IMG/VR virus record: IMGVR_UViG_3300050026_000241
Origin: a virus
Taxonomy: Duplodnaviria > Heunggongvirae > Uroviricota > Caudoviricetes
Direction: 5' to 3' (one strand)
DNA length: 64,000 nt
Program-made: the position numbers and the translations under genes
Notes under the pieces: generated by a model
Told to the model about the DNA's origin: nothing
Seen by the model: the letters and a program-made list of their open reading frames with translations, nothing else
The model's database searches: none
In this document: positions 3,969 through 62,257 of the stretch, piece by piece
How positions within the stretch are numbered: the stretch's first letter is position 1
How the letters are laid out: each line of letters starts with the position of its first letter

Positions 3969-4382
3969 ATGATTGTGAGCAAGAAAAGAACACTCCGACG
4001 CCGGCTGCAAAATGCCTGCCGCTGGTTTCACGACTGCTGGTATTGGATCAAGTGCCGCCTACTTTGTCGTTACAATGTAGTGGTGTGCAGGCCGCTGCCG
4101 CCGACCTGGGTTGACCGTGATTACCTTTTGCTGTTTGCGTCCTTCCAGATTTTGGAAGACTTTGTGGACCGGGAGGAAGGTCACTTTTACGAGAACGTCT
4201 ACCCGCTCTACCTTGACTGCGGCAAGGAACGTGCCCGCGAGGAAGAGCGGGATTGGGACGCAATTCGCAACCTTTACGTTTGGTGGCAGAGTCGTAAGGC
4301 CGACAAGTACGCCGACGATTACGATGAAGACAGCGACATGCTTCACCGACTTATTGACCTGCGGAAATACCTCTGGACCTGA
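3969..4382 (+). CDS. hypothetical protein
   Basis: 137-aa ORF, Trp/Cys-rich N-terminus, acidic C-terminus; operon-coupled. Confidence 0.4.
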   Translation: MIVSKKRTLRRRLQNACRWFHDCWYWIKCRLLCRYNVVVCRPLPPTWVDRDYLLLFASFQILEDFVDREEGHFYENVYPLYLDCGKERAREEERDWDAIRNLYVWWQSRKADKYADDYDEDSDMLHRLIDLRKYLWT

Positions 4383-4391
4383 AAGAAAACA

Positions 4392-5393
4392 ATGAGAATC
4401 CCCAAATCGCTTTCCTATTCGTCGCTCTCGCTGTTTGAAAAAGATTGCGAAGAGTTTTACATGAAGTACCTTGCGGACAAGTCGCCCGAGCGGCTGCCGC
4501 AAGAACCGCCGATGGCCGTGGGCTCCGCGTTTGACGCCTACTGCAAGTCGTCGCTCCATGCCGCCCTGTTCGGGGCCGGAGCCGATCCGCAATTTGAGTT
4601 GGCGACCATCTTTGAGTCGCAAGTCGAACCGCAGTGCCGAGATTTTGCCTTTGAGGCCGGTAAGCATGTTTTTGAGTGCTATGTGTTGTGCGGGGCCTAC
4701 GACGAATTGCTGTCGCTCTTGAAGCAAAGCACCGAGCCACCGCGATTCGAGTTCACGGTAAAGGGAACCATCGGCGGCGCACCGTTCTTGGGTAAGCCTG
4801 ACTGTCGGTTCGTTCTCGATCTCGGTCAGGGACGCATTAGCGTGGTGTTCGACTTCAAAGTTCATGGCTACTGCTCCAAGTATGGGGCGTCCCCGACGAA
4901 GGGCTACCGGCTGTGCCGCGATGCCTATAAGACGGACAAGCCGAGCCGCTCACACATGACGGCGCACAAGAACTACCTGGGCATGGATTACCGGGGCATG
5001 GAGATCAACAGCGGCTATATGGAGTATTGCGGAAAAGAATACGCTGACCAGCTTTGCCTCTACGGCTGGCTGCTGGGCGAACCTGTCGGCGACGAGAATG
5101 TCATCATGGCCTTGGACGAGGTTGTGGCGAAGTATATGGGCGAAGGCAACAAGCCTCTGCTCCGCGTTGCCAACCATATCGGCCGCGTGAGCAAGGCTCA
5201 CCAGGACGCGCTCGTGAAACGGGTCGAGAAGTGTTGGGCCGCGATTCAGAGCGGCCATATCTTCCCCGAGATGTCGCTGGCCGACAGTCAGAACCGGCAG
5301 TCGATTCTCGATGAAATGTCCGGTGCCCTGTTGACGGACGGTTCGGTCAAGGACGATTTCTTCGTCGATTGCGTGCGGAGTCCCAAATGGTAA
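4392..5393 (+). CDS. putative PD-(D/E)xK nuclease-family protein
   Basis: N-terminus SYSSLSLFEKDCEEFYMKYL resembles Cas4/RecB-like nuclease N-termini; VFDFKVHGY supplies a (D/E)xK. Confidence 0.45.
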   Translation: MRIPKSLSYSSLSLFEKDCEEFYMKYLADKSPERLPQEPPMAVGSAFDAYCKSSLHAALFGAGADPQFELATIFESQVEPQCRDFAFEAGKHVFECYVLCGAYDELLSLLKQSTEPPRFEFTVKGTIGGAPFLGKPDCRFVLDLGQGRISVVFDFKVHGYCSKYGASPTKGYRLCRDAYKTDKPSRSHMTAHKNYLGMDYRGMEINSGYMEYCGKEYADQLCLYGWLLGEPVGDENVIMALDEVVAKYMGEGNKPLLRVANHIGRVSKAHQDALVKRVEKCWAAIQSGHIFPEMSLADSQNRQSILDEMSGALLTDGSVKDDFFVDCVRSPKW

Positions 5394-7333: not shown

Positions 7334-7749
7334 ACAGCATAGGGAATCGACCCTTTCGCGCGGCCATAGATTTTGACGGCACCGTAGTCACAAGCAGCCC
7401 TTGCGACAAGACCCTCATTGGTTCGCCAGTGCCCTTTGCCCTTTACTGGCTGCAAAAATGGCAAGATGCCAGAGCCGAATTGTATCTCTGGACCATGCGT
7501 GGCAGGCAGGGCACCGATGGAGATAGACTCTCCCCTGCTGTTCGTTACTTGCTCGACAACGGTATCAGACTGGCCGGTGTGAACCGTGGTGAGCGGCCGT
7601 GGACCGACAGCCCGAAGCTCTACGCCAATGTCTATGTTGACAATGCGGCGGCCGGAGCACCGCTGATCTATCCCGCAAACGGATTACCGTCGTACCTAGA
7701 CTGGACTGTTGTTGGTCCACTCGTTTACAATATGATTAGGGAGTGGTAA
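7330..7749 (+). CDS. HAD-like hydrolase family protein
   Basis: AIDFDGTVV = HAD motif I (DxDGT). Confidence 0.5.
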   Translation: MNSIGNRPFRAAIDFDGTVVTSSPCDKTLIGSPVPFALYWLQKWQDARAELYLWTMRGRQGTDGDRLSPAVRYLLDNGIRLAGVNRGERPWTDSPKLYANVYVDNAAAGAPLIYPANGLPSYLDWTVVGPLVYNMIREW

Positions 7750-8516
7750 TGGTGAAGTATCAACTGCTGAACATGGATTGCCTTGAGTGGCTGCCGAGCA
7801 TCGAGACCGAGATCGACACGCTTTTCGCGGACCCGCCCGATAATTTGAATCTGGCCTACGACAGCTACAAAGACAAGCTGACCAAGGACCAGTACGTCGG
7901 CATGTTGCAACAGTGGCTCTGCATGTTCGTCGCCAAAGCCCGGACGGTCTGGTTCTCGTACAACGCTAAGTGGTCGTTCGAGGTAGGCCGAATTGTCTGT
8001 GCCCTCCAAGAGTCCTACGGCAAGGGCATCGAATGCAAACCGTGCGTCCAAACCTTTACCTTCGGGCAACACTGCCACTTTGATCTTGGCAACAACCATC
8101 GGCCGTTGCTCCGCATTCAGAAGGCGGGCGCGCCGCTGTACCCGGACGCCATCCGTGTGCCGTCGTGGCGGCAAGAGCACGGCGACAAGCGGGCTGACCC
8201 TCGTGGCAGAGTCCCAGGTGATGTTTTTGATGTTCCTCGCGTGACAGGCAACAGTAAGCAACGCAGAAGTTGGCATCCAACTCAGTTGGGTGAGACGCTG
8301 GTCGAACGCTGCGTAAAGTTCACCACCCCTCCGGGTGGAATGGTTGTCGATCCATTCGCCGGCACCGGCACGACGCTCAGAGTGTGTAAACGTCTTGGCT
8401 TCAACTGTGTCACGACCGAGATCGACAAGACGTATTGTGAGAACATTGCCAAGGAAAACGATCTTGCCCGGTCGGAATACTGCCACCGAGCCGTGTGGGG
8501 GAGCGAGGTAATATGA
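7749..8516 (+). CDS. DNA N6-adenine/N4-cytosine methyltransferase (beta-class)
   Basis: motif IV FADPPDN precedes motif I VVDPFAGTGTT. Confidence 0.8.
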   Translation: MVKYQLLNMDCLEWLPSIETEIDTLFADPPDNLNLAYDSYKDKLTKDQYVGMLQQWLCMFVAKARTVWFSYNAKWSFEVGRIVCALQESYGKGIECKPCVQTFTFGQHCHFDLGNNHRPLLRIQKAGAPLYPDAIRVPSWRQEHGDKRADPRGRVPGDVFDVPRVTGNSKQRRSWHPTQLGETLVERCVKFTTPPGGMVVDPFAGTGTTLRVCKRLGFNCVTTEIDKTYCENIAKENDLARSEYCHRAVWGSEVI

Positions 8517-10647: not shown

Positions 10648-10692
10648 TCGTAACGATTATACCTGCCGGAGCAATGCTCCGGCAGGCACAGC

Positions 10693-11823: not shown

Positions 11824-12315
11824 ATGAAAACCGCCGACTATGAATCCTTAGCAGAGGCCGAGTTCTACATCTATGCCTACTTTGACGAGAAGGATGTGCC
11901 AATCTACATCAAAGCTGGCCGTGGCGACCAGGCTCATTCGCACATTCAAGGATGTCAGGCGGTATTCCGTGACAACAATTCGCCGGCTTTCTACCGGAAA
12001 CTCCGCGACATGCTTTATAAGAATTTGAAGCCGACTGTCCGCATCATTGCCGAGAATCTGACACAAGTTGAAGCGTTTGAAGTGTGGGAAGATTTCTTCA
12101 TCCAAGCCATCGGCCAACAAAGACTGGGCACCGGCCCGCTGCTGAACGAACACTTGAACGGCGACGGGGATGCTCAGGAACTTCACCCGCGCGTGGCACG
12201 GCCGCAACAACTCGCACACGCGCGCCCACATCGTACCCCGGCACGTTCCACCGTTCGACAGCAGCTTGAAATCGAATGGCAGACCGATTTGCAGACCGAA
12301 TTGCTGGCAACGTAA
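11824..12315 (+). CDS. GIY-YIG-like domain protein
   Basis: FYIYAYFDEKDVPIYIKAGRG resembles GIY...YIG; cassette promoter ~90 nt upstream; Arg-rich tail possibly over-extended. Confidence 0.4.
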   Translation: MKTADYESLAEAEFYIYAYFDEKDVPIYIKAGRGDQAHSHIQGCQAVFRDNNSPAFYRKLRDMLYKNLKPTVRIIAENLTQVEAFEVWEDFFIQAIGQQRLGTGPLLNEHLNGDGDAQELHPRVARPQQLAHARPHRTPARSTVRQQLEIEWQTDLQTELLAT

Positions 12316-12422
12316 TCATCCGGCAGTCCAAACGCGCCAAGGTTGGCGATGCTGCCGGGTGGCGAGCGCCTTCTTGCGAGACTCGTCACCACCCGGCAGC
12401 AATTCGACTGTGACCACACACA

Positions 12423-12617
12423 ATGCAAAAGACAGACCGTTTGAACCAACTGATCGCGGACATTCGCCGCGAGGCCCCGCACGTCGGCAAGAAGCCGTAC
12501 AGCCACAACATTATCCGAACCGCTTTGAGTATCATCGCCGACGAGTTTGGCGTCGAGGAAGCCAATAAGGTCGTCCGAAAACTCAGGCTGCATCGGAGAG
12601 GATTCAACGAAGAGTAA
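12423..12617 (+). CDS. hypothetical protein
   Basis: 64-aa ORF. Confidence 0.4.
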   Translation: MQKTDRLNQLIADIRREAPHVGKKPYSHNIIRTALSIIADEFGVEEANKVVRKLRLHRRGFNEE

Positions 12618-12621
12618 TTCA

Positions 12622-12924
12622 ATGACGAGTAAAGCCAAGGCAACAAAACTGTCGGACCCGACGCCGTTCAGAACAGTGGCGGACGAGCGAATCTCAAAAC
12701 GCACAAGCGAAAAGCAAACCCTACAAACCCTGCGTGAACAAGTACAAGCGGGTAAAAGTGACGCCAAGGTGAAGGCAGTGCTCGCCCAGATCAAGAGCAA
12801 GTTTGGGGACGCCGCCTTCGAGAAAGAACTTCGCGCCTACGCCGTGACCAAGGCCGGCGTCAAAGGTGCGCAAGACGTGAGGCTACCGCCCGGCGTCAGC
12901 CCGAATGTGGGAAGGAACAAGTAA
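12622..12924 (+). CDS. basic small protein, PARAKKLD/KFGD family copy 1
   Basis: array of 5 tandem paralogs; shared N-terminal K..ARAKKLD-like and QIxxKFGD[AE][EA][YF] motifs. Confidence 0.5.
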   Translation: MTSKAKATKLSDPTPFRTVADERISKRTSEKQTLQTLREQVQAGKSDAKVKAVLAQIKSKFGDAAFEKELRAYAVTKAGVKGAQDVRLPPGVSPNVGRNK

Positions 12925-14626: not shown

Positions 14627-15242
14627 AATTATCACAGTCGAGCAATTCAAGGTGTTGCTGGACTACGACATTGCCGAGAAAATAGCCAATGACCGGCTAG
14701 CCCGCTTAGAGACGCTCAACAACAGAGTCAGCATGTTGGCCGTGTTATACACGGAGCTGTGCCGCAGGCTGTATGTCGAGTGTGAGGATGCCAGGGAGAT
14801 TGTCGAAGCGACAGAGAACCCGCAGGCAACAGCCTACGTTGAGTACGTGTCCCATTACGACGCTTCCAATGTGGTCTACGATCTGATGCAGGAAGCAACG
14901 AAAGAAGCCAATACGGAAGCAAGCTATCTCGCCTGGTTCAAAACAATGACGTTTGACCCCGCATACAAGGCGGCGATAGAATTGATTAAAGGTAAGAGGG
15001 ACGAAGGGACGAAGGGTGAAACAGTGCAAGATATAACGCTAAACGAAGATATAACGGACGCAGCCGAAGATATAACGGACGCAGCCGAAGAAGCCTTAAT
15101 TGAGGAAGTTAAAGGTCTTGACGCCGATGACTTGCTCGATGCTTGCGAGCATGTCCTTGGATTAAATCATCCAGCGACAAAGGCACTGCGTTTTGAAGTT
15201 GAGCGCATCAATGGTGAACATGAAACACCGGGGAGTCTCTAA
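14616..15242 (+). CDS. hypothetical protein, paralog pair member 2
   Basis: TENPQATAYVEYVSHYDASNVVYDLMQEATKE; internal repeat EDITDAAEx2. Confidence 0.5.
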   Translation: MLIEIITVEQFKVLLDYDIAEKIANDRLARLETLNNRVSMLAVLYTELCRRLYVECEDAREIVEATENPQATAYVEYVSHYDASNVVYDLMQEATKEANTEASYLAWFKTMTFDPAYKAAIELIKGKRDEGTKGETVQDITLNEDITDAAEDITDAAEEALIEEVKGLDADDLLDACEHVLGLNHPATKALRFEVERINGEHETPGSL

Positions 15243-16087
15243 TGTGGTTGAATCTATCAACAACCTTTCCCTCTGCTCCGGTGGTGGCGGGCTCGACATC
15301 GGACTTGAACTCGCTCTCGGAGCGGTTCGCACGGTCTGTTGGGTGGAGTGGGAAGCCTTTGCCATCGAGTACATTGCGAAAGCGATGGAAAACGGCGGCT
15401 TGGATAAAGCACCTATTTGGACTGACGTGCGCACTTTCGACGGACGACCCTGGTGTGGCGTCGTGGATAGCATCACTGCGGGCTACCCGTGTCAACCGTT
15501 CAGCTATGCGGGTGACAGACATGGACAGGATGATCCTCGTCACCTGTGGCCACACGTCGCTCGAATCGTTGGCGAAATTAAACCCACACTCGTCTTTCTC
15601 GAAAACGTGTCAGGACACCTTACCCTTGGGTACGATCAAGTCGCTGCCGATCTTGACAAACTGGATTACACAGTTGCGACAGGACTCTTCACAACGTCAG
15701 AAGTTGGCGGAAGCCAAAAACGAGAGCGGCTTTTCACTGTGGCCTGCGCCGGCCGCGACCATGACAACAGGCGAAGACAAGGATGCGAGCTGGGTTCCCG
15801 GTCAGAAGCCGACACGGTGGGGGAAAGTAGTACAAACAGCGTTGACCACCTGTGCCAAGATTTGGATGCGGGACTACCTCTCTTCCCTCCGCGACCGGAC
15901 GACTATGAAACCTGGACCGCCCTGCTCAAAGACACCCAAAACCAAAGGCTCGCCCCTGCGCTTGAACCCGACCTTCACTGGCTGGCTGATGGGATGGCCG
16001 AACTTCGGTTGCACGGCAACGGAGTGGTCCCGCTACAAGCAGCGTATGCGTTCTGCTCTCTGTGGTCTGTTTTGCGAAACGAAGTAG
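15220..16087 (+). pseudogene. DNA (cytosine-5)-methyltransferase split across two reading frames
   Basis: frame of 15220: motif I LSLCSGGGGLD, motif IV GYPCQPFSYAG, motif VI ENV, motif VIII QKRERLF; frame of 15242 downstream: TRD LWPAPAATMTTGEDKD and motif IX-like RLNPTFTGWLMGWPNFG; switch at T4 run ~15731-15734. Confidence 0.55.
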
Positions 16088-16091
16088 CCAC

Positions 16092-17018
16092 ATGAACATC
16101 TTCTACAAACATCCGAGAAGCGGTATGGTTGTTTGGCCCGCTGACTGGACCGACCGCCACTTCAACTGTAATGAACCCTGTGACGTGCTCATCGGTGCGT
16201 GCTCTTGTGGAGCATGGCACAATGAAAACGAAGAATGGGTGCGCCAGATTTTACTCGACCACAACGCAATCATCCTAGAAAGACCTGACATGCCTCTCTA
16301 TTGTCCGAATTGCCGCTCGCAACTCGACCCCACGAATGCCGTTAAGCAGCATATTAGCTGCGCCATGTGCTTCTGGATGGGTATGCTCAAGGACTGCCTC
16401 AAGGAGCTGCCGTCGCGCATCGGGATGCCGTATGTATCTATTGATTTAGAGACAACCGGCCTGAACCCTGATTATTGCCAGCTTCTTGAGATCGGTGCGG
16501 TATACGACGACGGCAGATTCATTGACGAATTACCGGTCTTCCATAAGTACGTCTACAGTCCTGACGGCCGCTATACTGGCGAACCATTCGCCCTGCAAAT
16601 GAATGCAAAAATCTTAAAGCGGCTGTCGAGCATTTCCGAGGCCGATAAACAGAACAAGGTGTGCGTGCGGCCGGATGAAGTGGCCGAGTGTTTCCGTCAA
16701 TGGTTAATTGAAGCCTGTGGGTGGGACGGTAAAACCTGTATCACCCCGGCCGGCAAGAACTTTGCCAGCTTCGACAAGCAGTTTCTCTACCGACTCCCCG
16801 GCTGGACCGAGAAAGTGAAGCTGAACCATAGGACGCTGGACCCGGCCATGCTCTGGTGGAACCCGTTGACGGACGACAGGCTGCCAGGCAGTCAAGAGTG
16901 CATGGACCGCGCCGGGCTCAAGGGCACCGTTGCCCACACCGCCGTCGAAGATGCGGAAGTTGTAGTCAGGCTTATCCGGTTGGCAGTCAGGCAGGGGCGA
17001 GTCAAGTGGAGCGATTAA
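16092..17018 (+). CDS. DEDDh 3'-5' exonuclease (DnaQ-like) with Cys-rich N-terminal domain
   Basis: Exo I VSIDLETTGL; Exo II GKNFASFD; Exo III HTAVEDA. Confidence 0.7.
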   Translation: MNIFYKHPRSGMVVWPADWTDRHFNCNEPCDVLIGACSCGAWHNENEEWVRQILLDHNAIILERPDMPLYCPNCRSQLDPTNAVKQHISCAMCFWMGMLKDCLKELPSRIGMPYVSIDLETTGLNPDYCQLLEIGAVYDDGRFIDELPVFHKYVYSPDGRYTGEPFALQMNAKILKRLSSISEADKQNKVCVRPDEVAECFRQWLIEACGWDGKTCITPAGKNFASFDKQFLYRLPGWTEKVKLNHRTLDPAMLWWNPLTDDRLPGSQECMDRAGLKGTVAHTAVEDAEVVVRLIRLAVRQGRVKWSD

Positions 17019-17653
17019 CCCTTTCACACCCTGCCACCTCGCAAGATGCCTGGGTCATTGAGACTCTTGGACGTAGGCGCGGTGGTTTCTTCGTAGAGAT
17101 CGGTGGCTACGACGGCGTTACGCACAGTAACACACTGGCTCTGGAACGCAGTTTTGATTGGGATGGCTTGCTGGTGGAAGCCAACCCGGACCACTACAAG
17201 AAGATGGTGGAGTACCGGCCAGCGTGCCAGCATGACAACCGGGCCGTGAGTGTCAGCACCGGCAGTGATGTCAGATTCACTAAAGCCGGTCAGTGGAGCG
17301 GTCTGACCGACTTTCTGCCCGAGGCTTGGCAGCAAGAGTACGACGACCGAAACGCGCCGACCTTCTGGGTGAAGACGGTCAAACTGCTTGACTTGTTCCG
17401 AGAGCACAACGTACCGAGAGTCATTGACTACTTCTCGCTCGACATTGAAGGCGGGGAATTACCTGTGTTGCGGGAGTTTTTCCGATTCGGCCACACCCTG
17501 TTTCGTTTTCGCTGCATGACCGTCGAATACCAGATGGACGGCGGCAACCTCATGCGCTTGGAACGCTTACTTGGACCCCACGGCTACACGCTTGAAAAGG
17601 TGCAAGCGTGGGACGCCTTCTTCGTCAACCGAGACCTTTTGGAGACCCAATGA
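17006..17653 (+). CDS. FkbM-family methyltransferase
   Basis: FVEIGGYDG; IDYFSLDIEGGELPVL; GTG start overlapping upstream gene. Confidence 0.6.
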   Translation: MERLTLSHPATSQDAWVIETLGRRRGGFFVEIGGYDGVTHSNTLALERSFDWDGLLVEANPDHYKKMVEYRPACQHDNRAVSVSTGSDVRFTKAGQWSGLTDFLPEAWQQEYDDRNAPTFWVKTVKLLDLFREHNVPRVIDYFSLDIEGGELPVLREFFRFGHTLFRFRCMTVEYQMDGGNLMRLERLLGPHGYTLEKVQAWDAFFVNRDLLETQ

Positions 17654-17913
17654 TAGTCGAATCCCTGCTTTTCCTTATTGTTGTGCTGCTGGGCCTGTTG
17701 CTCTACAAGGCCGGTATTGTGGAGGCCCCTTCCGAGGGGCGTGAGACACTAAACCGGCTGGACTACGACCGAGAGGCCGTGAAGCTGGCCGCCGAAGAGG
17801 CCGCTGCCAAAGAAGCCGAGCAGGCCCGTTTGAAGCACGACCTTGAGTGTGCTTCCCACGAATCGCCGGCCGCCAAGAAGGCCCGCACCGCGCGAAAACC
17901 GAAAAATTCGTAA
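17650..17913 (+). CDS. small membrane-anchored protein
   Basis: N-terminal TM LLFLIVVLLGLLLY, charged helical tail. Confidence 0.45.
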   Translation: MIVESLLFLIVVLLGLLLYKAGIVEAPSEGRETLNRLDYDREAVKLAAEEAAAKEAEQARLKHDLECASHESPAAKKARTARKPKNS

Positions 17914-17935
17914 GAGCGCGCACAACTCGCGCCCG

Positions 17936-17954
17936 TTTTACGACTCTCTATGTG
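17936..17954 (+). promoter_or_regulatory. T7-like single-subunit RNAP promoter candidate
   Basis: TTTTACGACTCTCTATGTG vs T7 TAATACGACTCACTATAGG; same element recurs at ~23029. Confidence 0.45.
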
Positions 17955-17997
17955 AACACCGTTTACATTCCATTCGTTTGAACCCGGAGAAAGTACC

Positions 17998-18255
17998 ATG
18001 TCCGAAAGCATCATGCAGAAGGTCAAAGACGCCGCCAAGTCGGGCTTGACCGCCGTTGAAACCGCCCTGGGCTTCGCCAAGGCCGAAGGCCAGAAGGTTG
18101 CCGCCGCCGCCACGACGGTCGTGACGACCGACGCCCCCGCCGTACAGGCCGCCATCAAGGCCGGTGAGACCGCTGCCGTCGCCGTCGCGCAGAGCGCCAC
18201 GGCCGCCGTTCAGCAAGTCGCCGCCACCGGTGCCCCGGCACCCGCCGCAAGCTGA
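17998..18255 (+). CDS. Ala-rich small protein
   Basis: 85 aa, ~35% Ala; follows T7-like promoter motif at ~17936. Confidence 0.5.
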   Translation: MSESIMQKVKDAAKSGLTAVETALGFAKAEGQKVAAAATTVVTTDAPAVQAAIKAGETAAVAVAQSATAAVQQVAATGAPAPAAS

Positions 18256-18282
18256 TCGTATCCCGAAGTCGGTTTTCCCGGC

Positions 18283-18310
18283 TTGACTTCTGCGGAATAG
18301 CCGGTATACT
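18283..18310 (+). promoter_or_regulatory. sigma70-like promoter cassette (orphan; drives hairpin transcript)
   Basis: TTGACT-N16-cGgTATACT; no ORF before next cassette at 18432. Confidence 0.45.
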
Positions 18311-18312
18311 TC

Positions 18313-18395
18313 AATACGGCTTCGTAGTTGAGACGAAGATGTCGGGGACAGACAAAAAGTGTGTCAACATAACACCGTCCTTTTTGTCTGTCCCT
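18313..18395 (+). ncRNA. candidate short structured transcript (orphan promoter + 15-bp stem-loop)
   Basis: stem GGGACAGACAAAAAG (~18345-18359) pairs with CTTTTTGTCTGTCCC (~18380-18394), 20-nt loop. Confidence 0.3.
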
Positions 18396-18431
18396 GTGGG
18401 GAACAACTAAGTGGGGGCCAAGGATTTTCAC

Positions 18432-18459
18432 TTGACTTCTACGAAAAAGGTGGTATGAT
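18432..18459 (+). promoter_or_regulatory. sigma70-like promoter cassette
   Basis: TTGACT-N16-TGgTATGAT; ATG 18466 leaderless. Confidence 0.6.
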
Positions 18460-18465
18460 TGAGAT

Positions 18466-18711
18466 ATGAAGACTGTCACCTTAACCGAAGCCGAAGCCAG
18501 ACGTGTTTACGAGCTTCTCGGCGGCTCGTGTCCGTTGGACCCGCTTGAGCAACGTATGGCCGACAAAATAGCCAGAGTGTTACTGTGCGTAACGCCGTAC
18601 CCAAAGCGGCCGGCAGCGCGTCGGGCATATCCAGGCGACCCGATACGTGGCGACCCGATACGTGGCAACCTCACCGACAAAGTAACGGAGTCATTACATG
18701 GCATCAACTGA
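18466..18711 (+). CDS. hypothetical protein, paralog pair member 1
   Basis: cassette promoter, leaderless; LTEAEARRVYELL...MADKIAR; GDPIRGDPIRG from 15-nt tandem repeat. Confidence 0.45.
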   Translation: MKTVTLTEAEARRVYELLGGSCPLDPLEQRMADKIARVLLCVTPYPKRPAARRAYPGDPIRGDPIRGNLTDKVTESLHGIN

Positions 18712-18874
18712 CATCGACGGCTCGACCATCGTGATACTGTCCGAGGCGGAAGCCGTGCGGGTGTACGAACACTTATGCAACATTTCCGCCAACTGGACGT
18801 TCGACAAACTGGACCACCAGATTGCCGACAAACTCTCCCGCGACCTTAACCTTCCACCACTTGGCCAGGATTGA
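18698..18874 (+). CDS. hypothetical protein, paralog pair member 2
   Basis: LSEAEAVRVYEHL...IADKLSR; 58 aa, not in track; approximate. Confidence 0.35.
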   Translation: MASTDIDGSTIVILSEAEAVRVYEHLCNISANWTFDKLDHQIADKLSRDLNLPPLGQD

Positions 18875-22998: not shown

Positions 22999-23028
22999 TT
23001 TTCTGACCGCGCGCACAACCAACTTCCG

Positions 23029-23047
23029 TTTTACGACTCTCTATGTG
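23029..23047 (+). promoter_or_regulatory. T7-like single-subunit RNAP promoter candidate
   Basis: TTTTACGACTCTCTATGTGGAGG; ATG 23063 16 nt downstream; shares ~40-nt upstream context with 17936 copy. Confidence 0.45.
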
Positions 23048-23062
23048 GAGGAAAGTTGCGAA

Positions 23063-23329
23063 ATGAGAGAGACCGAACTACTGAATGCCCTGGCACTTAG
23101 CAAGCCCGGCATCGAGATTCGCATGTGCAAAGGGCACAAAGTCTCGGTGCGGATGCGCGGCGAGCCCTTAGTGTGCGGCATCGGCACGACGCTTATGGAA
23201 GCCGCCATTGACTGTGCCCACTGGGTTTTCGACGTGTGTGCTGACCGCCCCGAGTTGGAAGAAAAGATTCCCGAAGTCCTGGCCGCTTTGTGTGCCTATG
23301 ACGAACATTCACAGGGTTTACAACTATGA
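23063..23329 (+). CDS. hypothetical protein
   Basis: ATG 16 nt after T7-like promoter motif ending ~23047. Confidence 0.45.
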   Translation: MRETELLNALALSKPGIEIRMCKGHKVSVRMRGEPLVCGIGTTLMEAAIDCAHWVFDVCADRPELEEKIPEVLAALCAYDEHSQGLQL

Positions 23330-23430
23330 ACGCCACCGACCGGTTGTTGGCACTTTTGGCTTTTGGCGTGCTGATGGGCTTTGCGCTTTGCACGGCCACC
23401 GCCATGCTCATTGCACTGTTCACCCGATAA
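23326..23430 (+). CDS. very small TM protein
   Basis: 34 aa; approximate. Confidence 0.25.
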   Translation: MNATDRLLALLAFGVLMGFALCTATAMLIALFTR

Positions 23431-23447
23431 CCCATACGACACGAACT

Positions 23448-24194
23448 ATGAATGACAGCATTGGCGACCGATTCAAGAACAATTATGAGGCCCCCGCGCG
23501 TCACCTACTGACCCGCAGGACGCCCGTAATCGTGCGCATTGACGGTCGTGCCTTCCACACCTTCACCCGCGACTTCCTCAAGCCGTTCGACCGTGAGTTA
23601 ATCAACATGATGGTGTTGTCGGCCATGCACGTCTTTGGCGAAATGCAGGGCTGCAAGATAGCTTACGTCCAGTCGGACGAGGCCAGCTTCGTGTTGACCG
23701 ACTACGACACTTTCGACACGCAGCCTTGGTTCGGCTACGTCAAAAGCAAGGTGGAAAGTGTCGCGGCGTCCTGCATGACGGCTGCGTTCGCACGTTGCCA
23801 GCATCTTGCGGGTGGGCGGTACGCCGACTCACTGGCGACATTTGACGCCCGTGCCTTCAACATCCCCAGGAATGAGGTAGTAAACTACTTCGTGTGGCGG
23901 GCGAAGGACTGGGCGCGCAACAGCTTGTCGATGTACTGCCAGTCGATCTTCTCTCACCGCGAGTTGCAGGGCAGGAACTCCAAGGCCATGCACGAAATGC
24001 TGTTTGCGAAAGGCCGTAACTGGACACGCGACCTTTGCAACGCCGAGAAGAATGGGACGTTCTTGATTGCCCCGAAAGAGGCCGTGGCCGCGAATTCCGA
24101 CATCGAACCAAGATACGGCGACATTGATGCCGTATGGGAAGCCGTTCGACCAAAAGAGGCCGTCACTACCGCAATCGAAATCGTAAGCGAATAA
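23448..24194 (+). CDS. Thg1-like protein (tRNA-His guanylyltransferase family, 3'-5' nucleotidyltransferase)
   Basis: N-terminal VIVRIDGRAFHTFT matches Thg1/TLP signature. Confidence 0.65.
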   Translation: MNDSIGDRFKNNYEAPARHLLTRRTPVIVRIDGRAFHTFTRDFLKPFDRELINMMVLSAMHVFGEMQGCKIAYVQSDEASFVLTDYDTFDTQPWFGYVKSKVESVAASCMTAAFARCQHLAGGRYADSLATFDARAFNIPRNEVVNYFVWRAKDWARNSLSMYCQSIFSHRELQGRNSKAMHEMLFAKGRNWTRDLCNAEKNGTFLIAPKEAVAANSDIEPRYGDIDAVWEAVRPKEAVTTAIEIVSE

Positions 24195-26387: not shown

Positions 26388-27779
26388 TCAAATGACCAAG
26401 CCAATACCTAGAACAACCCCGCAATCGGCTTTTGCCACTATCCAGGGCGACTTGTCGCCATATTGGAATGACAAGTGCCGCGCGTTGCAATCGCGCCTCT
26501 GGTGCCCAACCGAGAATGATTGCAAAGTGTTGTTCGATTCTTCGGAGTTCATTGAGCGTGTTGCCTCACCGTCTGCCGGAGATTTGTGCCCGTCGTTTGT
26601 ACTTCCCGCTCTATCTGGCGAGCGACCCAAGGAAAAGGAAGTTAGCCGTAAGATAAGGCTCTATCCGAAGAACTTGGAGAAGTGGGAGGAATGTTTGTGG
26701 GCGGCTCGTCGGGCCTACAACCTCGCTATTGAGGCTTTCAAGGAATGGAAGAAGGATGTGCCGAGCGAGGCAGATAACCAATCCGCCTTTCGCCGCTCAA
26801 TCCGTGAAAAGGTAGCGGCTGAATTTCCCGGTGTGCCGCGCGTAATGCTTGACGAAGCGGTCAACAGCGCTTACCTCACACGGCAAGCCATCATTAAGAA
26901 AAGATCGCAAGGTGAGCAATGCGACTTTTCCTTCCGTTGCCGGAAGGACACGAAGCAATCGTTTGTAGTTGAGAGGCTTGCGAACGGTGGGCCGTTTCCA
27001 ACCTTTCTGAAATGCCATCTTACCGAGGCGATTCCGAGCGAATCTGCCGGGAAAATGGCGGTTGTTGTGCGAGAGCATGGTAGATGGTTTCTGACGTGTA
27101 AGGTCAAGGTGCCGGTTGCTGCCGAGAGCCAAGGTAGGAAAACCGTCGCTTGCGACCCCGGCGTAAGAACTTTTCTCGCTACCTACTCTCTTAGTGATTG
27201 TGCGTTTATCGGCCACGGCTTTGCCGCCAAGATACGACCAATGCTCTTGCAGCTTGATAAGTTGCTTGGGCGGCGGAAGTGCTTGAGCAACATCAAGGAA
27301 TGGAAGCAATGTCACCGGGATAGGAACCGTAACTTGCAAAAGCGAATCGACTCGATCTTTTGCAAGGTGCAAGACTTGATGGACGATCTGCACCGGCGTG
27401 CGGCCGATTTTCTCACAAAGAACTTCGACGTGATTTTGCTTCCGACATTTGAGACTTCCGAAATGGTTTCCAAGAGCGCACGCAAAATTGGTAGCCGCTC
27501 CGTCCGGTCGATGCTATCCCTTGGTCACTATCGCTTCAAGCAATTCCTGATTTGGTCGGCCTACAAGCGTGGCAAGATCATAGTGGATTGCAGCGAAGCG
27601 TGGACCACATGCACCGACTCCCGAAGCGGTGTGATTATTGATGTTGGTTCAAGGGAATGGATCAACGGACTTCACAGGGATGTAAACGGCTCGCGGGGTA
27701 TTTTCCTCCGAGCGATGGCGGCTTGAGCCCGAAACATCCCCAGCAAACGCTACAAAATGTTGCGTTTGTTGCGTTTCAA
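26364..27779 (+). mobile_element. TnpB-only transposon-like unit bounded by inverted repeats
   Basis: left TTGAACGCAACAAACGCAACAT (~26364-26385) vs right ATGTTGCGTTTGTTGCGTTTCAA (~27757-27779), 22/23 match; tnpB fills the interval. Confidence 0.5.
26392..27726 (+). CDS. tnpB: TnpB-like RuvC-fold nuclease (IS200/IS605 OrfB family)
   Basis: RKIRLYPKNLEKWEECLWAARRAYN; RuvC-I KTVACDPGVRTF; RuvC-II LLPTFETSEM; RuvC-III HRDVNGSRGI; zinc finger degenerate. Confidence 0.75.
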   Translation: MTKPIPRTTPQSAFATIQGDLSPYWNDKCRALQSRLWCPTENDCKVLFDSSEFIERVASPSAGDLCPSFVLPALSGERPKEKEVSRKIRLYPKNLEKWEECLWAARRAYNLAIEAFKEWKKDVPSEADNQSAFRRSIREKVAAEFPGVPRVMLDEAVNSAYLTRQAIIKKRSQGEQCDFSFRCRKDTKQSFVVERLANGGPFPTFLKCHLTEAIPSESAGKMAVVVREHGRWFLTCKVKVPVAAESQGRKTVACDPGVRTFLATYSLSDCAFIGHGFAAKIRPMLLQLDKLLGRRKCLSNIKEWKQCHRDRNRNLQKRIDSIFCKVQDLMDDLHRRAADFLTKNFDVILLPTFETSEMVSKSARKIGSRSVRSMLSLGHYRFKQFLIWSAYKRGKIIVDCSEAWTTCTDSRSGVIIDVGSREWINGLHRDVNGSRGIFLRAMAA

Positions 27780-28547: not shown

Positions 28548-28575
28548 TCGACTTCTGCGAATTGCCGTGTATAAT
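28548..28575 (+). promoter_or_regulatory. sigma70-like promoter cassette (variant -35 TCGACT)
   Basis: TCGACT-N16-TGtTATAAT; leader to sigma factor gene ATG 28601. Confidence 0.5.
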
Positions 28576-28600: not shown

Positions 28601-29185
28601 ATGATGCTTCAACTGCAAGATGAAGAACTCTTTTTGCTCTACAAGACGACTCGTAACAACGAATACTTCACCACCGTCTACAATCGCCAGGTGGGTCGGG
28701 TTCGTCACTACCTGATGCGTCTCATGCCGGCATCTGGCGGCTGCATCCATAGCAGTTACATCGACGACCTAATCCAGCTAGTCTTCACCGACCTGGTCGG
28801 ACACGACAGCTTCAAGAAGAGCACGCTGCTTAACTACCTTCTTGAGCGAGCCAAGTGGCATTGCCTGGACCTGCGCCGACACCTGACCGCCAAGAAGCGG
28901 GCCACATCTATGCCGGAAGTTGAAATCAGCGAGACCGACAGCATTACCACCATCACACCGTTAGACGACCTGTGCGAGAAAGAGTCGCGCGAGGTTCTCC
29001 GAGACATGGTCGAGCGTTTGCCCGAAATTGAGCGAAATATCATACAACTTCTGCTGAACGGCCACAGTAAGAGCAAAATCGCCAAGGTTTTGAGCATTAG
29101 CCCTCGTAAATTCCTCACCCGTTACAACTTCGCCCTTCGGTTGTTGAAAATCATGGCCCACAGCAGAGAGCTAACCGTCGCATGA
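28601..29185 (+). CDS. sigma-70 family (ECF-like) RNA polymerase sigma factor
   Basis: region 4 HTH LPEIERNIIQLLLNGHSKSKIAKVLSISPRKFLTRYNFALRLLK; region-2-like LIQLVFTDLVGHDSF. Confidence 0.6.
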   Translation: MMLQLQDEELFLLYKTTRNNEYFTTVYNRQVGRVRHYLMRLMPASGGCIHSSYIDDLIQLVFTDLVGHDSFKKSTLLNYLLERAKWHCLDLRRHLTAKKRATSMPEVEISETDSITTITPLDDLCEKESREVLRDMVERLPEIERNIIQLLLNGHSKSKIAKVLSISPRKFLTRYNFALRLLKIMAHSRELTVA

Positions 29186-29481
29186 AGTTCTTCGGCTGGA
29201 ATCCCGAATGGCTTGAAGGTCGAATTGTCAACCGCCGACTGACGGATGCCTATGACATTTCGATCTGCCGACCCTCAAAATGGGGTAATCCATTCGAGGT
29301 TGAAGTATACGGCCGAGAGCGGGCTATCGCCCTTTTTGCGATACATCTACGACGCCGCCCCGATCTTATCGCATCTTTGCCCGAGCTATCGGGCAAAATT
29401 CTAGGCTGCTGTTGTTATCCGCTACACTGCCACGGTGCTATTTTGCTCCAATTTCTATGGGAATACCACGGCTTGCTATGA
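29182..29481 (+). CDS. DUF4326-family protein
   Basis: RPSKWGNPF and GKILGCCCYPLHCHGAIL. Confidence 0.5.
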   Translation: MKFFGWNPEWLEGRIVNRRLTDAYDISICRPSKWGNPFEVEVYGRERAIALFAIHLRRRPDLIASLPELSGKILGCCCYPLHCHGAILLQFLWEYHGLL

Positions 29482-30515
29482 ATCTTAAATCAATCGGCTT
29501 CTACACGCTCAGCGACGAGCGCTGTCTTAACGTCAGTGCGTTGTCGCCTATGCAGCGGTGCGAAATGATCCTGACGGACAAATGCAACTTCAAGTGTCCG
29601 TACTGCCGGGGCCTGCGCAACGATTGCAAGGGCGACTTGCCGATTGAAGACGCGATGGCGACCCTCAAGCTGTGGTGCGACGACGGCTTGAAGAACGTGC
29701 GGTTCTCTGGCGGCGAACCCCTCACATACCCGCATCTGGACGCCTTGGTGAAGTACGCCAAGTTCCGTGGTGTCGAACACATAGCGATCTCTTCCAACGG
29801 CTCGTTCCCGTTCGGCCGCTACTACGAATTGATTACCGAGGGCGTCAACGACTTCTCAATCAGCCTGGACGCTTGCTGTAGTTCATACGGCGACAAGATG
29901 GCGGGCGTCAGCGGGCAGTTTGAACGGGTGACGTACAACATCGTCGAGTTGTCAAAGCTAGTTTACACGACGGTCGGCGTGGTACTCACAGCCGAGACCG
30001 TTTCCACGACTCGCAGAGTCGTGGAGTTTGCACACGGCCTGGGCGTGACCGACATACGAATCATCCCGTGCGCCCAAGAGGGGAACGGCAACGCTGAACT
30101 TGTTCGACAGGTTGGACTAATTTCGCAAAAAATCTTGGACGCCCACCCTATATTAAAATATCGGGTACAGAACATCCTTAATGGTGTGCTAATTCGCGGC
30201 TTACAAGCGTCCGATACGCACACCTGTTACCTGGCCCTGGACGACAGCGTAGTCAGCGGCGGGTATCACTATCCCTGTGTTATTTACCTGCGTGAGAAGG
30301 GCGAGCCAATCGGCAAAGTCGGCCCGAACATGAGAGGCCAGCGAGTAGCGTGGATGGCCCAGCACGACACCCACAAAGACCCGATCTGCTCTAAGCAATG
30401 TCTCGATGTCTGCTGCGCGCATAATAATCGTTGCGCCTTTTATCAAGAGAGGAAGCACTGGTTTGTCACGCAGACTGCATCTACCGATGCCGAAAATGTC
30501 AGCACGCGACATTGA
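29478..30515 (+). CDS. radical SAM protein with C-terminal Cys-rich region
   Basis: CNFKCPYC (CxxxCxxC); RFSGGEPL; C-terminal CSKQCLDVCCAHNNRC. Confidence 0.7.
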   Translation: MNLKSIGFYTLSDERCLNVSALSPMQRCEMILTDKCNFKCPYCRGLRNDCKGDLPIEDAMATLKLWCDDGLKNVRFSGGEPLTYPHLDALVKYAKFRGVEHIAISSNGSFPFGRYYELITEGVNDFSISLDACCSSYGDKMAGVSGQFERVTYNIVELSKLVYTTVGVVLTAETVSTTRRVVEFAHGLGVTDIRIIPCAQEGNGNAELVRQVGLISQKILDAHPILKYRVQNILNGVLIRGLQASDTHTCYLALDDSVVSGGYHYPCVIYLREKGEPIGKVGPNMRGQRVAWMAQHDTHKDPICSKQCLDVCCAHNNRCAFYQERKHWFVTQTASTDAENVSTRH

Positions 30516-41718: not shown

Positions 41719-41733
41719 TGAGTAGACTTCAAT

Positions 41734-41764
<31 letters not shown>

Positions 41765-45616: not shown

Positions 45617-45627
45617 AACCGCTACAG

Positions 45628-45696
45628 CCCGCAGGAATCAGTAATCCGGTACAATCAGTCCACCCTACCTGATTACCGATTACTGTTTCCTGCGGG
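45628..45696 (+). terminator. long imperfect hairpin (19-bp stem) abutting next promoter
   Basis: CCCGCAGGAATCAGTAATC / GATTACTGTTTCCTGCGGG. Confidence 0.35.
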
Positions 45697-45726
45697 TTGA
45701 CTTCTTGACGGTAGTATGCTATACTC
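45697..45726 (+). promoter_or_regulatory. sigma70-like promoter cassette (variant)
   Basis: TTGACT then TTGACG; -10 TATACT at 18-nt spacing; leaderless ATG 45732. Confidence 0.45.
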
Positions 45727-50969: not shown

Positions 50970-51001
50970 CTTTCGACTTGACTTTCGACTTGACTTTCGA
51001 C
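50962..51001 (+). repeat. 12-nt tandem iterons TTGACTTTCGAC x3 merging into true -35
   Basis: seen directly. Confidence 0.8.
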
Positions 51002-51029
51002 TTGACTTCTCTCCGGCACATGCTATGAT
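51002..51029 (+). promoter_or_regulatory. sigma70-like promoter cassette preceded by three extra -35 iterons
   Basis: leader to 51065. Confidence 0.6.
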
Positions 51030-53189: not shown

Positions 53190-53243
53190 TGATTATCAGT
53201 CAACCAACAGGAAGCAGCAGTCAACCAACAGGAAGCAGCAGTT

Positions 53244-55114: not shown

Positions 55115-55150
55115 TGAATATCTAACAGAATATCTAACAGGGAGCAACAC

Positions 55151-58297: not shown

Positions 58298-58350
58298 TGA
58301 GTAAGTTCAGACCGTGTAAACGCAACAGGGAGCAACAGGGAGCAAACAGT

Positions 58351-59684: not shown

Positions 59685-59729
59685 CCGGCCGGCTTGCCCT
59701 CCCCTTGCAAGCCGGCCGGTTGTTTTTCT
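59685..59729 (+). terminator. rho-independent terminator
   Basis: CCGGCCGGCTTGC...GCAAGCCGGCCGG stem followed by TTGTTTTTCT. Confidence 0.7.
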
Positions 59730-60611: not shown

Positions 60612-60653
60612 TAAATATCTAACAACGCAACAGGGAGCAACAGGGAGCAAACA

Positions 60654-61069: not shown

Positions 61070-61105
61070 GTATTAAGTAACAACGCAACGCAACGCAACG
61101 CAACG
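61070..61105 (+). repeat. (CAACG)n pentanucleotide repeat in 5' leader
   Basis: 5-6 units; exact count uncertain. Confidence 0.7.
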
Positions 61106-61127
61106 CAACGCAACAGAAAGTAGAACA

Positions 61128-61767: not shown

Positions 61768-61799
61768 CTTTCAACTTAACTTTCGACTTAACTTTCGAC
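61768..61799 (+). repeat. 12-nt tandem iterons CTTAACTTTCGA(~x3) upstream of -35
   Basis: seen directly. Confidence 0.75.
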
Positions 61800-61827
61800 T
61801 TGACTTCGCCCCGGCACATGGTATTAT
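61800..61827 (+). promoter_or_regulatory. sigma70-like promoter cassette preceded by 12-nt iterons
   Basis: TGgTATTAT; leader to 61852. Confidence 0.55.
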
Positions 61828-62124: not shown

Positions 62125-62168
62125 GAATCGACTTGAGAATCGACTTGAGAATCGACTTGAGAATCGAC
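62117..62168 (+). repeat. 12-nt tandem iterons CGACTTGAGAAT x4 upstream of -35
   Basis: seen directly. Confidence 0.8.
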
Positions 62169-62196
62169 TTGACTTCTCCCCGGCACATGGTAAGAT
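62169..62196 (+). promoter_or_regulatory. sigma70-like promoter cassette preceded by 12-nt iterons
   Basis: TGgTAAGAT; leader to 62258. Confidence 0.55.
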
Positions 62197-62257
62197 TGAG
62201 CATACAAACAACGCAACAGGAACAACACAACAGGAACACCGCAACAGGAACACCGCT

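Follow-up and report, generated by a model that had tools for sequence, protein, structure and literature searches.

The locus lies in a 64,000-nucleotide stretch of phage DNA (hereafter the window, meaning the whole stretch that was analysed) and comprises two promoter cassettes with a pair of hairpins between them. On its left an 85-aa Ala-rich gene (17998-18255, + strand), whose product matches no Pfam or PHROG family, follows a gene ending at 17913 and a canonical terminator at 17919-17940 (GCGCG...CGCGC, then CCGTTTT). A sigma-70-type cassette comes next at 18283-18310 on the + strand, with TTGACT (18283-18288) as its -35, a 16-nt spacer and TATACT (18305-18310) as its -10, in agreement with an earlier note on this DNA that had described an orphan cassette here. 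Two hairpins occupy 18320-18338 (hp1) and 18343-18396 (hp2), and hp2 ends 35 nt upstream of another + strand cassette (18432-18459; TTGACT at 18432-18437, 16 nt, then TGgTATGAT with the -10 at 18454-18459). As the same note had it, this second cassette belongs to the gene at 18466: it drives a leaderless 81-aa gene (18466-18711, + strand) with its ATG at that position. The 81-aa gene is paralogous to the gene that follows it (58 aa, 18698-18874; 46% identity over 39 aa, E 3e-9).

The phage is uncultured and widely sampled. Its exact 85-aa protein is encoded by 12 public contigs, of which the largest exceeds 50 kb, and the longest contig in the cluster of a neighbouring protein measures 97 kb. 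GC content is about 55%. The window encodes several DNA methyltransferases as well as RNase T-type exonuclease, Thg1-like, TnpB-like and radical-SAM proteins; one window protein has a match to sigma-70 region 4, and dozens of small genes belong to no known family.

The orphan cassette is one of many. A search of the window for TTGACT-N16-TATNNT with at most one mismatch gave 48 matches where 1.5 were expected, nearly all on the + strand, and 43 cassettes were scored for a downstream ORF. An ORF of at least 46 codons starts 5-64 nt past the -10 in 42 of these 43, the cassette at 18283 being the sole exception. Fifteen of the 42 are leaderless, with the ATG 5-8 nt past the -10 and mostly at 6 nt; the remaining cassettes have CA-rich leaders that end in a CAGGGAGCAA-type ribosome-binding site and are essentially unstructured (-0.6 to -2.6 kcal/mol over 58 nt). 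The earlier claim that no ORF follows the orphan cassette therefore stands for ordinary genes but not for short ones, as ORFs of 23 and 36 codons overlap the long hairpin. Both the -35 block (TTGACTTCT) and the 16-nt spacer length of the 18283 cassette are those of the family. It lacks the TGn extended -10, which is present in 41 of the 43 cassettes and missing elsewhere only at 28548, and for want of this element the promoter may be weak. When the ATG position of the leaderless cassettes is mapped onto this copy it falls at 18317, which puts the predicted transcription start at 18316-18318 on the + strand. A strong hairpin lies just 5' of only four of the 43 cassettes (10693, 18432, 45697 and 59740), and stem-loops are thus not a regular cassette component in this phage. 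Those before 10693 (10662-10686) and 45697 (45625-45699, -44.6 kcal/mol) have no U-tract, and the one before 59740 is a true terminator (59685-59719, then TTGTTTTTCT), the only one of the four with a U-tract.

Downstream of the orphan cassette the earlier note had seen a perfect 15-bp stem with a 20-nt loop and had suggested folding it. The two arms, GGGACAGACAAAAAG at 18345-18359 and CTTTTTGTCTGTCCC at 18380-18394, are exactly complementary, and folding of the + strand yields a long hairpin (hp2) of -28.2 kcal/mol (z = -6.7), with 0 of 200 shuffled sequences as stable. The 15 perfect pairs are continued by G18344.U18395 and C18343-G18396 into a 17-bp stem, and the 20-nt loop contains a 4-bp inner stem (GUGU/ACAC), leaving an asymmetric internal loop and a 7-nt apical loop. 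The G.U and C-G closing pairs form in + strand RNA only; the minus-strand fold reaches -27.9 kcal/mol. Perfect 15-nt inverted repeats with a loop of at most 40 nt occurred in 0 of 200 first-order Markov random sequences of 64 kb, and the window contains two, at 1291-1326 and in hp2. The hp2 repeat is beyond chance. The smaller hairpin on its 5' side, hp1, is predicted by folding as a 6-bp stem (CUUCGU-AGUUGAG-ACGAAG, -5.6 kcal/mol) and begins 3-4 nt from the predicted transcription start. At -28 and -5.6 kcal/mol, where the ordinary 58-nt cassette leaders reach only -0.6 to -2.6 kcal/mol, RNA from this segment is predicted to be far more structured than an ordinary translation leader and to differ from it in kind. 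The U-tract that the note had reported missing is indeed absent: there is no T-run 3' of the second arm, where the sequence reads TGTGGGGAACAAC, the pairing of a GC-rich stem with a U-tract that marks an intrinsic terminator is not found, and a terminator scan of the window does not list the hairpin. On the minus strand the loop carries TTGACA, but an antisense promoter was rejected because no -10 lies 16-18 nt away.

The two short ORFs run directly across these structures. The shorter one (MSGTDKKCVNITPSFLSVPVGNN; 23 codons, 18339-18410, + strand, ATG to TAA) has its putative Shine-Dalgarno (SD) sequence in hp1 and codons 2-19 in hp2, and is probably not translated. The longer one (36 codons, 18359-18469, + strand, GTG to TGA) traverses the next cassette; its putative SD and start codon coincide with the 5' arm of hp2, and its TGA overlaps the ATG at 18466 as ATGA. 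The start regions of both are buried in predicted helices. Codon scores were 0.05 for the 23-codon ORF and -0.12 for the part of the 36-codon ORF before the cassette, compared with 0.37 +/- 0.24 for in-frame windows and -0.49 +/- 0.33 for off-frame windows. When the 45-aa translation of the frame of the longer ORF was compared with 1.84 billion representative proteins, spurious short matches inside long unrelated proteins were the only result, and none of the public gene calls covers either ORF. The marks of a small protein-coding gene (an accessible ribosome-binding site, coding-like codons and homologs) were found for neither. A remnant of a protein gene within the segment was likewise rejected, no credible relative being present among the 1.84 billion representatives.

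Database searches assigned the region to no known family. Neither megablast nor blastn matched it to any of 50,697 phage records, and a pattern scan of IMG/VR for the hairpin gave no match with 15+15 or with 12+12 arms. The 12+12-arm scan of JGI metagenome contigs and GTDB genomes returned 18 matches; as homologs these were rejected, being unrelated terminators (A-tract, GC hairpin, U-tract) in diverse bacteria. The general cassette was seen in IMG/VR on two loosely related contigs only, and the cassette with its specific spacer on none. Rfam 15 gave no match for the region at gathering thresholds and, once relaxed to E <= 10, only miRNA-precursor models that share a generic hairpin shape (22.8 bits vs a gathering threshold of 69). 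Visually, hp1 is like a D-arm and CAACU like a T-loop, but a tRNA-derived origin was rejected on negative results from nhmmer, from the Rfam tRNA model (no match to the segment even at E < 10) and from ARAGORN, which reported no tRNA in the window. The end of an IS605/TnpB element, a MITE and a REP palindrome were also considered and rejected, the hairpin being single-copy; no similarity was found to the hairpin near the TnpB-like gene at 26392-27726. Even with up to 3 mismatches allowed, the hp2 arm sequence occurs nowhere else in the window; a covariance model of the hairpin structure found no further copy in 194 kb of window and relatives, and antisense matches to the rest of the window do not exceed 10-11 nt, which is the chance level.

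Among near-identical genomes, the hairpin is covered by 10 contigs from ten samples (L001-L009 and L050), and all 10 are identical across it. The only differences nearby, 18312 C>G and 18414 G>T, are both outside the stems. Since the 10 carriers do not vary at the hairpin, they carry no information on selection, conservation or covariation. On one of them, L002, position 18412 is joined directly to 18834, a deletion that removes the cassette at 18432 together with the 81-aa gene and most of its 58-aa neighbour; this junction lies only 30 nt from the contig end and needs read confirmation.

More divergent relatives place the segment in a wider context, and it is this comparative view of slot and cassette that goes beyond a reading of the single sequence. 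Homologs of the 85-aa protein with 78-83% identity led to three contig groups, in which breakpoints were located by blastn. Two other routes were less productive: the neighbouring 178-aa protein as query recovered a relative of 994 nt only, and the relatives of the FkbM methyltransferase (L015-L018, 54-59% identity) have lost synteny. In comparison with L021 and L030, whose flanks share about 76-80% nucleotide identity with ours, homology stops at 18259, just past the 85-aa gene's stop codon, and restarts at 18427, which leaves 5 nt to the -35 of the cassette at 18432. The 167 nt between (18260-18426, + strand) form a lineage-specific replacement module that contains the orphan cassette and both hairpins. 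It stands in place of 589 nt in L021 and of 416 nt in L030. The slot of the group L019-L023 holds a degenerate tRNA-like element (Rfam tRNA model, 26.5 bits), a tRNA-Glu(UUC) (49.4 bits) and a 130-aa gene, and that of L030 a tRNA-like element with the C-terminal remnant of a TnpB-type gene. The third group (L024-L029) has another short segment, a tRNA-Glu and an N-terminal extension fused to a homolog of the 81-aa protein, whose gene is also called in L020-L023 and L030. Four lineages thus have four kinds of slot content.

The module itself is composite. The block 18279-18315, including the spacer GCGGAATAGCCGG, matches L024 4752-4788 at 36 of 37 positions; there it sits at the 3' end of a 181-aa gene and is followed, 6 nt past its TATAAT, by the ATG of a leaderless 58-aa gene. 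The cassette block with this same spacer fronts the leaderless 58-aa gene throughout L024-L028; the 58-aa gene of the window has lost the cassette of its L024 homolog and is preceded by a GGAG ribosome-binding site. As a leaderless ATG 6 nt past the -10 is workable only with a firing promoter, the copy at 18283 is probably active too. The other 111 nt (18316-18426, with both hairpins) had no relative in nhmmer, blastn-short and tblastx searches of all loci and the window, which matched the cassette alone. We regard it as reasonably well supported by these comparisons that the slot is hypervariable, with a promoter cassette as its right border, and that the module joins a displaced cassette, functional elsewhere, to a unique hairpin segment. 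The left border is a stop codon and not a cassette, and a simple cassette-to-cassette exchange therefore explains the topology incompletely. Even so, judged from the alignments, the feature looks more like the product of cassette-linked module exchange than like a conserved RNA gene.

We tentatively favour, short of an even expectation, the reading that 18283 is a displaced working promoter making a structured, gene-less leader into gene 18466. The cassette would be a genuine, probably active copy of the repeated early promoter for host RNA polymerase (sigma-70-type), parted from a protein-coding gene by recombination in the hypervariable slot. Transcription starting near 18317 would give a gene-less RNA with the 6-bp hairpin at its 5' end and the 17-bp hairpin after it, strongly hairpinned and predicted to span 116 bases before it runs into the next promoter. 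Because no terminator follows hp2, the transcript is expected to pass that cassette and continue into the 81-aa gene. The cassettes at 18283 and 18432 would then act as tandem promoters, the first adding a structured, leadered message to the leaderless one from the second. On this view the hairpins most plausibly work in cis on the RNA that carries them, by stabilising or protecting its 5' end, by RNase III-type processing or by attenuation, and would be neither the product of a gene nor a canonical terminator. The extension of the stem by a G.U and a C-G pair in + strand RNA is a strand hint for such a leader; against it, gene 18466 has a strong cassette and a leaderless start of its own and can do without a further promoter upstream, and on a leadered transcript its ATG would have a poor SD.

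Other explanations were weighed against this leader. It is possible, although we doubt it, that the locus is a neutral recombination scar: a stranded promoter beside a palindrome formed by a single mutational event (an inverted duplication or a template switch), with no selected role and any transcript incidental. The four slot contents, the clear displacement of the cassette, the absence of the hairpin from every relative and collection searched and the L002 junction, which suggests ongoing deletions beside the hairpin, are all consistent with a scar, and in near-clonal carriers the stem may be perfect simply because it is young. Yet the repeat is far beyond chance, and a special origin is therefore needed; moreover, the additional closing pairs suit an RNA helix on the transcribed strand, and the genotype is unchanged in 10 samples. 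A stand-alone small RNA gene appears unlikely. It would yield a separate transcript of about 80-115 nt, made up of hp1 and hp2, with its 3' end formed by processing and a trans-acting role as regulator or decoy. Its own consensus promoter without an ordinary ORF, its strong and non-random structure, the presence of RNA-repair-type genes (Thg1-like) in the window and the use of the slot for tRNA-Glu and tRNA-like genes in relatives would all fit. There is, however, no terminator or other defined 3' end, no Rfam match above noise, no tRNA likeness, no antisense match above chance and no second copy or diverged homolog. The fuller version, in which a bona fide small-RNA gene with a 17-bp helix has replaced the tRNA-Glu and tRNA-like genes of an RNA-gene slot and has a trans-acting role, such as that of decoy or regulator in an RNA-level conflict, is more unlikely still. 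The idea of such a conflict rests on the Thg1-like and other RNA-repair-type genes of the phage group. Since the module is replaceable and its cassette displaced, a by-product of shuffling is no less likely than an RNA gene in its own right.

Three further proposals concern the hairpin as part of a gene, as DNA and as a terminator. We find it quite improbable that the promoter serves the 36-codon GTG or the 23-codon ATG ORF, with the hairpin hiding the ribosome-binding region as a translational switch. The 5' arm (GGGGACAGACAAAAAGTG) does resemble the usual leader and ribosome-binding site of this phage (CAGGGAGCAACAAAATG), the 48-nt leader is within the 21-64 nt of the family, and the stop of the longer ORF overlaps the downstream ATG; the codon scores are nevertheless intermediate to poor, both starts sit inside stable helices, and neither a homologous peptide nor a gene call was found. 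A site acting at the DNA level, with the 15-bp arms 20 bp apart serving as a binding site or cruciform (operator, roadblock, origin or recombination site), strikes us as very improbable. The symmetry is equally good on both DNA strands, the position is between two promoters and the L002 deletion junction is 16 nt from the stem, but a 20-bp arm spacing is atypical for dimeric operators, the arm sequence is single in the window, no iterons or AT-rich tract lie nearby and the cumulative GC skew does not turn here. To a terminator or insulator that ends the transcripts of the 85-aa gene and of the 18283 promoter ahead of the next cassette we give scarcely any credence: the stem lacks a following U-tract, its inner hairpin is just 4 bp and AU/GU-rich, the terminator scan missed it and the clear terminators of this phage are canonical. 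In its favour are a position just 5' of a cassette, like the stem-loop component of the promoter arrays of T4-type phages discussed below, and an A-tract, inner hairpin and U-rich 3' arm superficially like those of bidirectional terminators, the sole database matches to the arms.

If the promoter at 18283 fires, the locus would be a clean natural example of the leftovers of module shuffling between repeated promoter cassettes, namely a promoter that carries nothing but a structured RNA, at a place where relatives have tRNA genes. Phage non-coding RNAs, or new leaders that re-tune downstream expression, could arise at sites of this sort. Should the hairpin be a neutral scar, the case would be an ordinary one. 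The wider system of about 43 near-identical cassettes, with leaderless genes or unstructured CA-rich leaders, may outweigh this single locus in what it says about regulation and plasticity.

The closest parallel is with the promoter-early stem-loop (PeSL) cassettes of T4-type phages (Arbiol et al. 2010, PMC2839356; Comeau et al. 2014, PMC4122927). In those phages small orphan genes are flanked by repeated sigma-70 promoters with associated stem-loops, and these elements bring about the insertion, deletion and replacement of the genes. Both systems have many near-identical, strong sigma-70-type early promoters before small orphan genes in plastic regions. Breakpoints of insertion, deletion and replacement coincide with cassettes in PeSL, as does the right breakpoint here (18427), although the left one (18259) is at a stop codon. 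In both, stem-loops sometimes adjoin or overlap the promoter, and recombination can put cassettes in new contexts. The present phage is, however, unrelated (no match in the 50,697 records), has a GC content of about 55%, lacks an AT-rich upstream region, and shows an adjacent strong stem-loop at only about 4 of 43 cassettes. Moreover, the stem-loop studied here follows one cassette and precedes the next by 35 nt, has no poly-G/poly-C stem and, lacking a U-tract, is of doubtful terminator activity. We therefore draw the analogy as a functional and imperfect one, not as a phylogenetic one.

Resemblances to three other systems are more partial. With rho-independent terminators, bidirectional ones included, the feature shares an intergenic stem-loop whose arms begin and end with A5/T5 runs, but here the T-run is inside the stem, there is no GC-rich inner hairpin and the consensus scan does not pick the element up. 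With phage tRNA clusters it shares the exact position of the tRNA-Glu(UUC) and the degenerate tRNA-like element of its relatives; it differs in having a promoter of its own and no tRNA features, whereas the tRNAs of the relatives directly follow the upstream gene. An RNase III site calls for about two turns of dsRNA. In the early region of T7, transcripts made by the host polymerase are processed at RNase III hairpins in which a bubble is flanked by two stems of about 10 bp. The likeness to these sites lies in a long, near-perfect intercistronic RNA helix with an asymmetric internal loop and no U-tract, placed between a promoter and the first gene of what would be a host-polymerase early transcript, where cleavage would leave a stabilising hairpin. 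The helix here measures 17+4 bp, in contrast to the T7 sites, to which it has no sequence or Rfam relationship; as modelled, such a coaxial helix with its internal loop is compatible with an RNase III site.

The sigma-70-type promoter cassette, TTGACTTCT-N-CACATGgTATGAT, is present in about 43-48 copies between 10693 and 62587 of the window, nearly all on the + strand and at their highest density from 36 to 63 kb. By start type the copies form two classes: a leaderless one (15 cassettes), where the ATG lies 5-8 nt past the -10, and a leadered one comprising the remaining cassettes, with CA-rich, unstructured leaders of 21-64 nt that carry CAGGGAGCAA at their end. Inside a number of leaders 3' of cassettes we observed short tandem repeats, namely (CA)n and (CAACG)n as well as RBS blocks present in duplicate, for example CAGGGAGCAACAGGGAGCAA (41725-41760, 53195-53240, 55115-55140, 58300-58330, 60615-60640, 61075-61110 and 62200-62255), suggesting that these leaders are prone to slippage and variable in length. 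Some cassettes are also immediately preceded by tandem 13-nt repeats with the -35-like units TTGACTT, TTAACTT or TTGAGAA, and TTGACTTGACTTC is doubled in some members of this group (50975-51010, 61775-61810 and 62130-62175; also 36139, 55082 and 61041). The 13-nt repeats may be footprints of recombination or slippage, or else UP-like elements.

Besides the 17-bp hairpin (18343-18396) behind the gene-less cassette 18283, two further hairpins without a U-tract lie against cassettes. The strongest of the window (45625-45699; 22-nt arms, -44.6 kcal/mol, z -9.5) begins 9 nt past a stop codon and reaches with its 3' arm into the -35 of cassette 45697, an atypical copy with a 17-nt spacer and an apparently leaderless gene behind it (ATG 6 nt past the -10). 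The other, at 10662-10686, has perfect 12-nt arms that form 11 pairs in the predicted structure (-23.5 kcal/mol, z -6.3), and cassette 10693 begins 6 nt further downstream. Apart from the repeat that forms the 17-bp hairpin, the window has a single perfect inverted repeat with arms of 15 nt or more, at 1291-1326 (16-nt arms, 4-nt loop), close to the 3' end of ORF 829-1374.

The slot that holds the 17-bp hairpin, between the 85-aa gene and cassette 18432, is filled differently in related phages. Immediately 3' of the 85-aa gene homolog, these have tRNA-Glu(UUC) together with a degenerate tRNA-like element whose anticodon arm is truncated (26.5 bits), located at 4298-4441 in contig L019, 4132-4204 in L024 and 4180-4250 in L030; the whole 64-kb window contains no tRNA genes. 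In L030 the slot further includes a C-terminal remnant of a TnpB/Cas12f-like protein (YTSQxCxxC zinc-ribbon region) with its 3' flank (4250-4580), and a full-length TnpB-like ORF is found in the window at 26392-27726, 8 kb from the slot. TnpB-like elements are thus mobile in this group of phages.

Downstream of the slot, the 81-aa gene (18466-18711) and the 58-aa gene (18698-18874) are paralogous (46% identity over 39 aa, E 3e-9). The former, leaderless, is missing from the gene calls published for the lineage of the window itself. Its homolog in the L024 lineage has about 100 additional aa fused at the N-terminus (L024 4228-4773). In the near-identical contig L002 (from ERR14884525), window position 18412 is joined to 18834 (L002 3413-3444), a 421-nt deletion that takes out cassette 18432 together with the 81-aa gene and the larger part of the 58-aa gene. 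The junction shows short microhomology and lies 16 nt beyond the 17-bp hairpin; being only some 30 nt away from the end of the contig, it may represent an artefact of the assembly graph or else a minor variant.

Elsewhere the window encodes a Thg1-like and a radical-SAM protein, along with several DNA or FkbM-type methyltransferases (23298-24194, 29457-30515, 7749-8516, 15211-16095 and 17006-17653), and the relative L016 encodes an RlaP-type protein (12216-12666), an accessory set that suggests DNA modification and RNA repair. The window also encodes a sigma-70 region-4-like protein (28601-29185).

Finally, a terminator-like GCGCG hairpin with CCGTTTTACGACTCTCTATGTG behind it constitutes a conserved block with two copies in the window (17919-17959 and 23009-23048), and the block recurs with 100% conservation in a relative of 80% identity (L012 1345-1383). 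The core of the block, ACGACTCTCTATG, looks similar to the core of T7-type promoters. Ahead of the 85-aa gene, the block may serve as a middle or late promoter specific to the phage.
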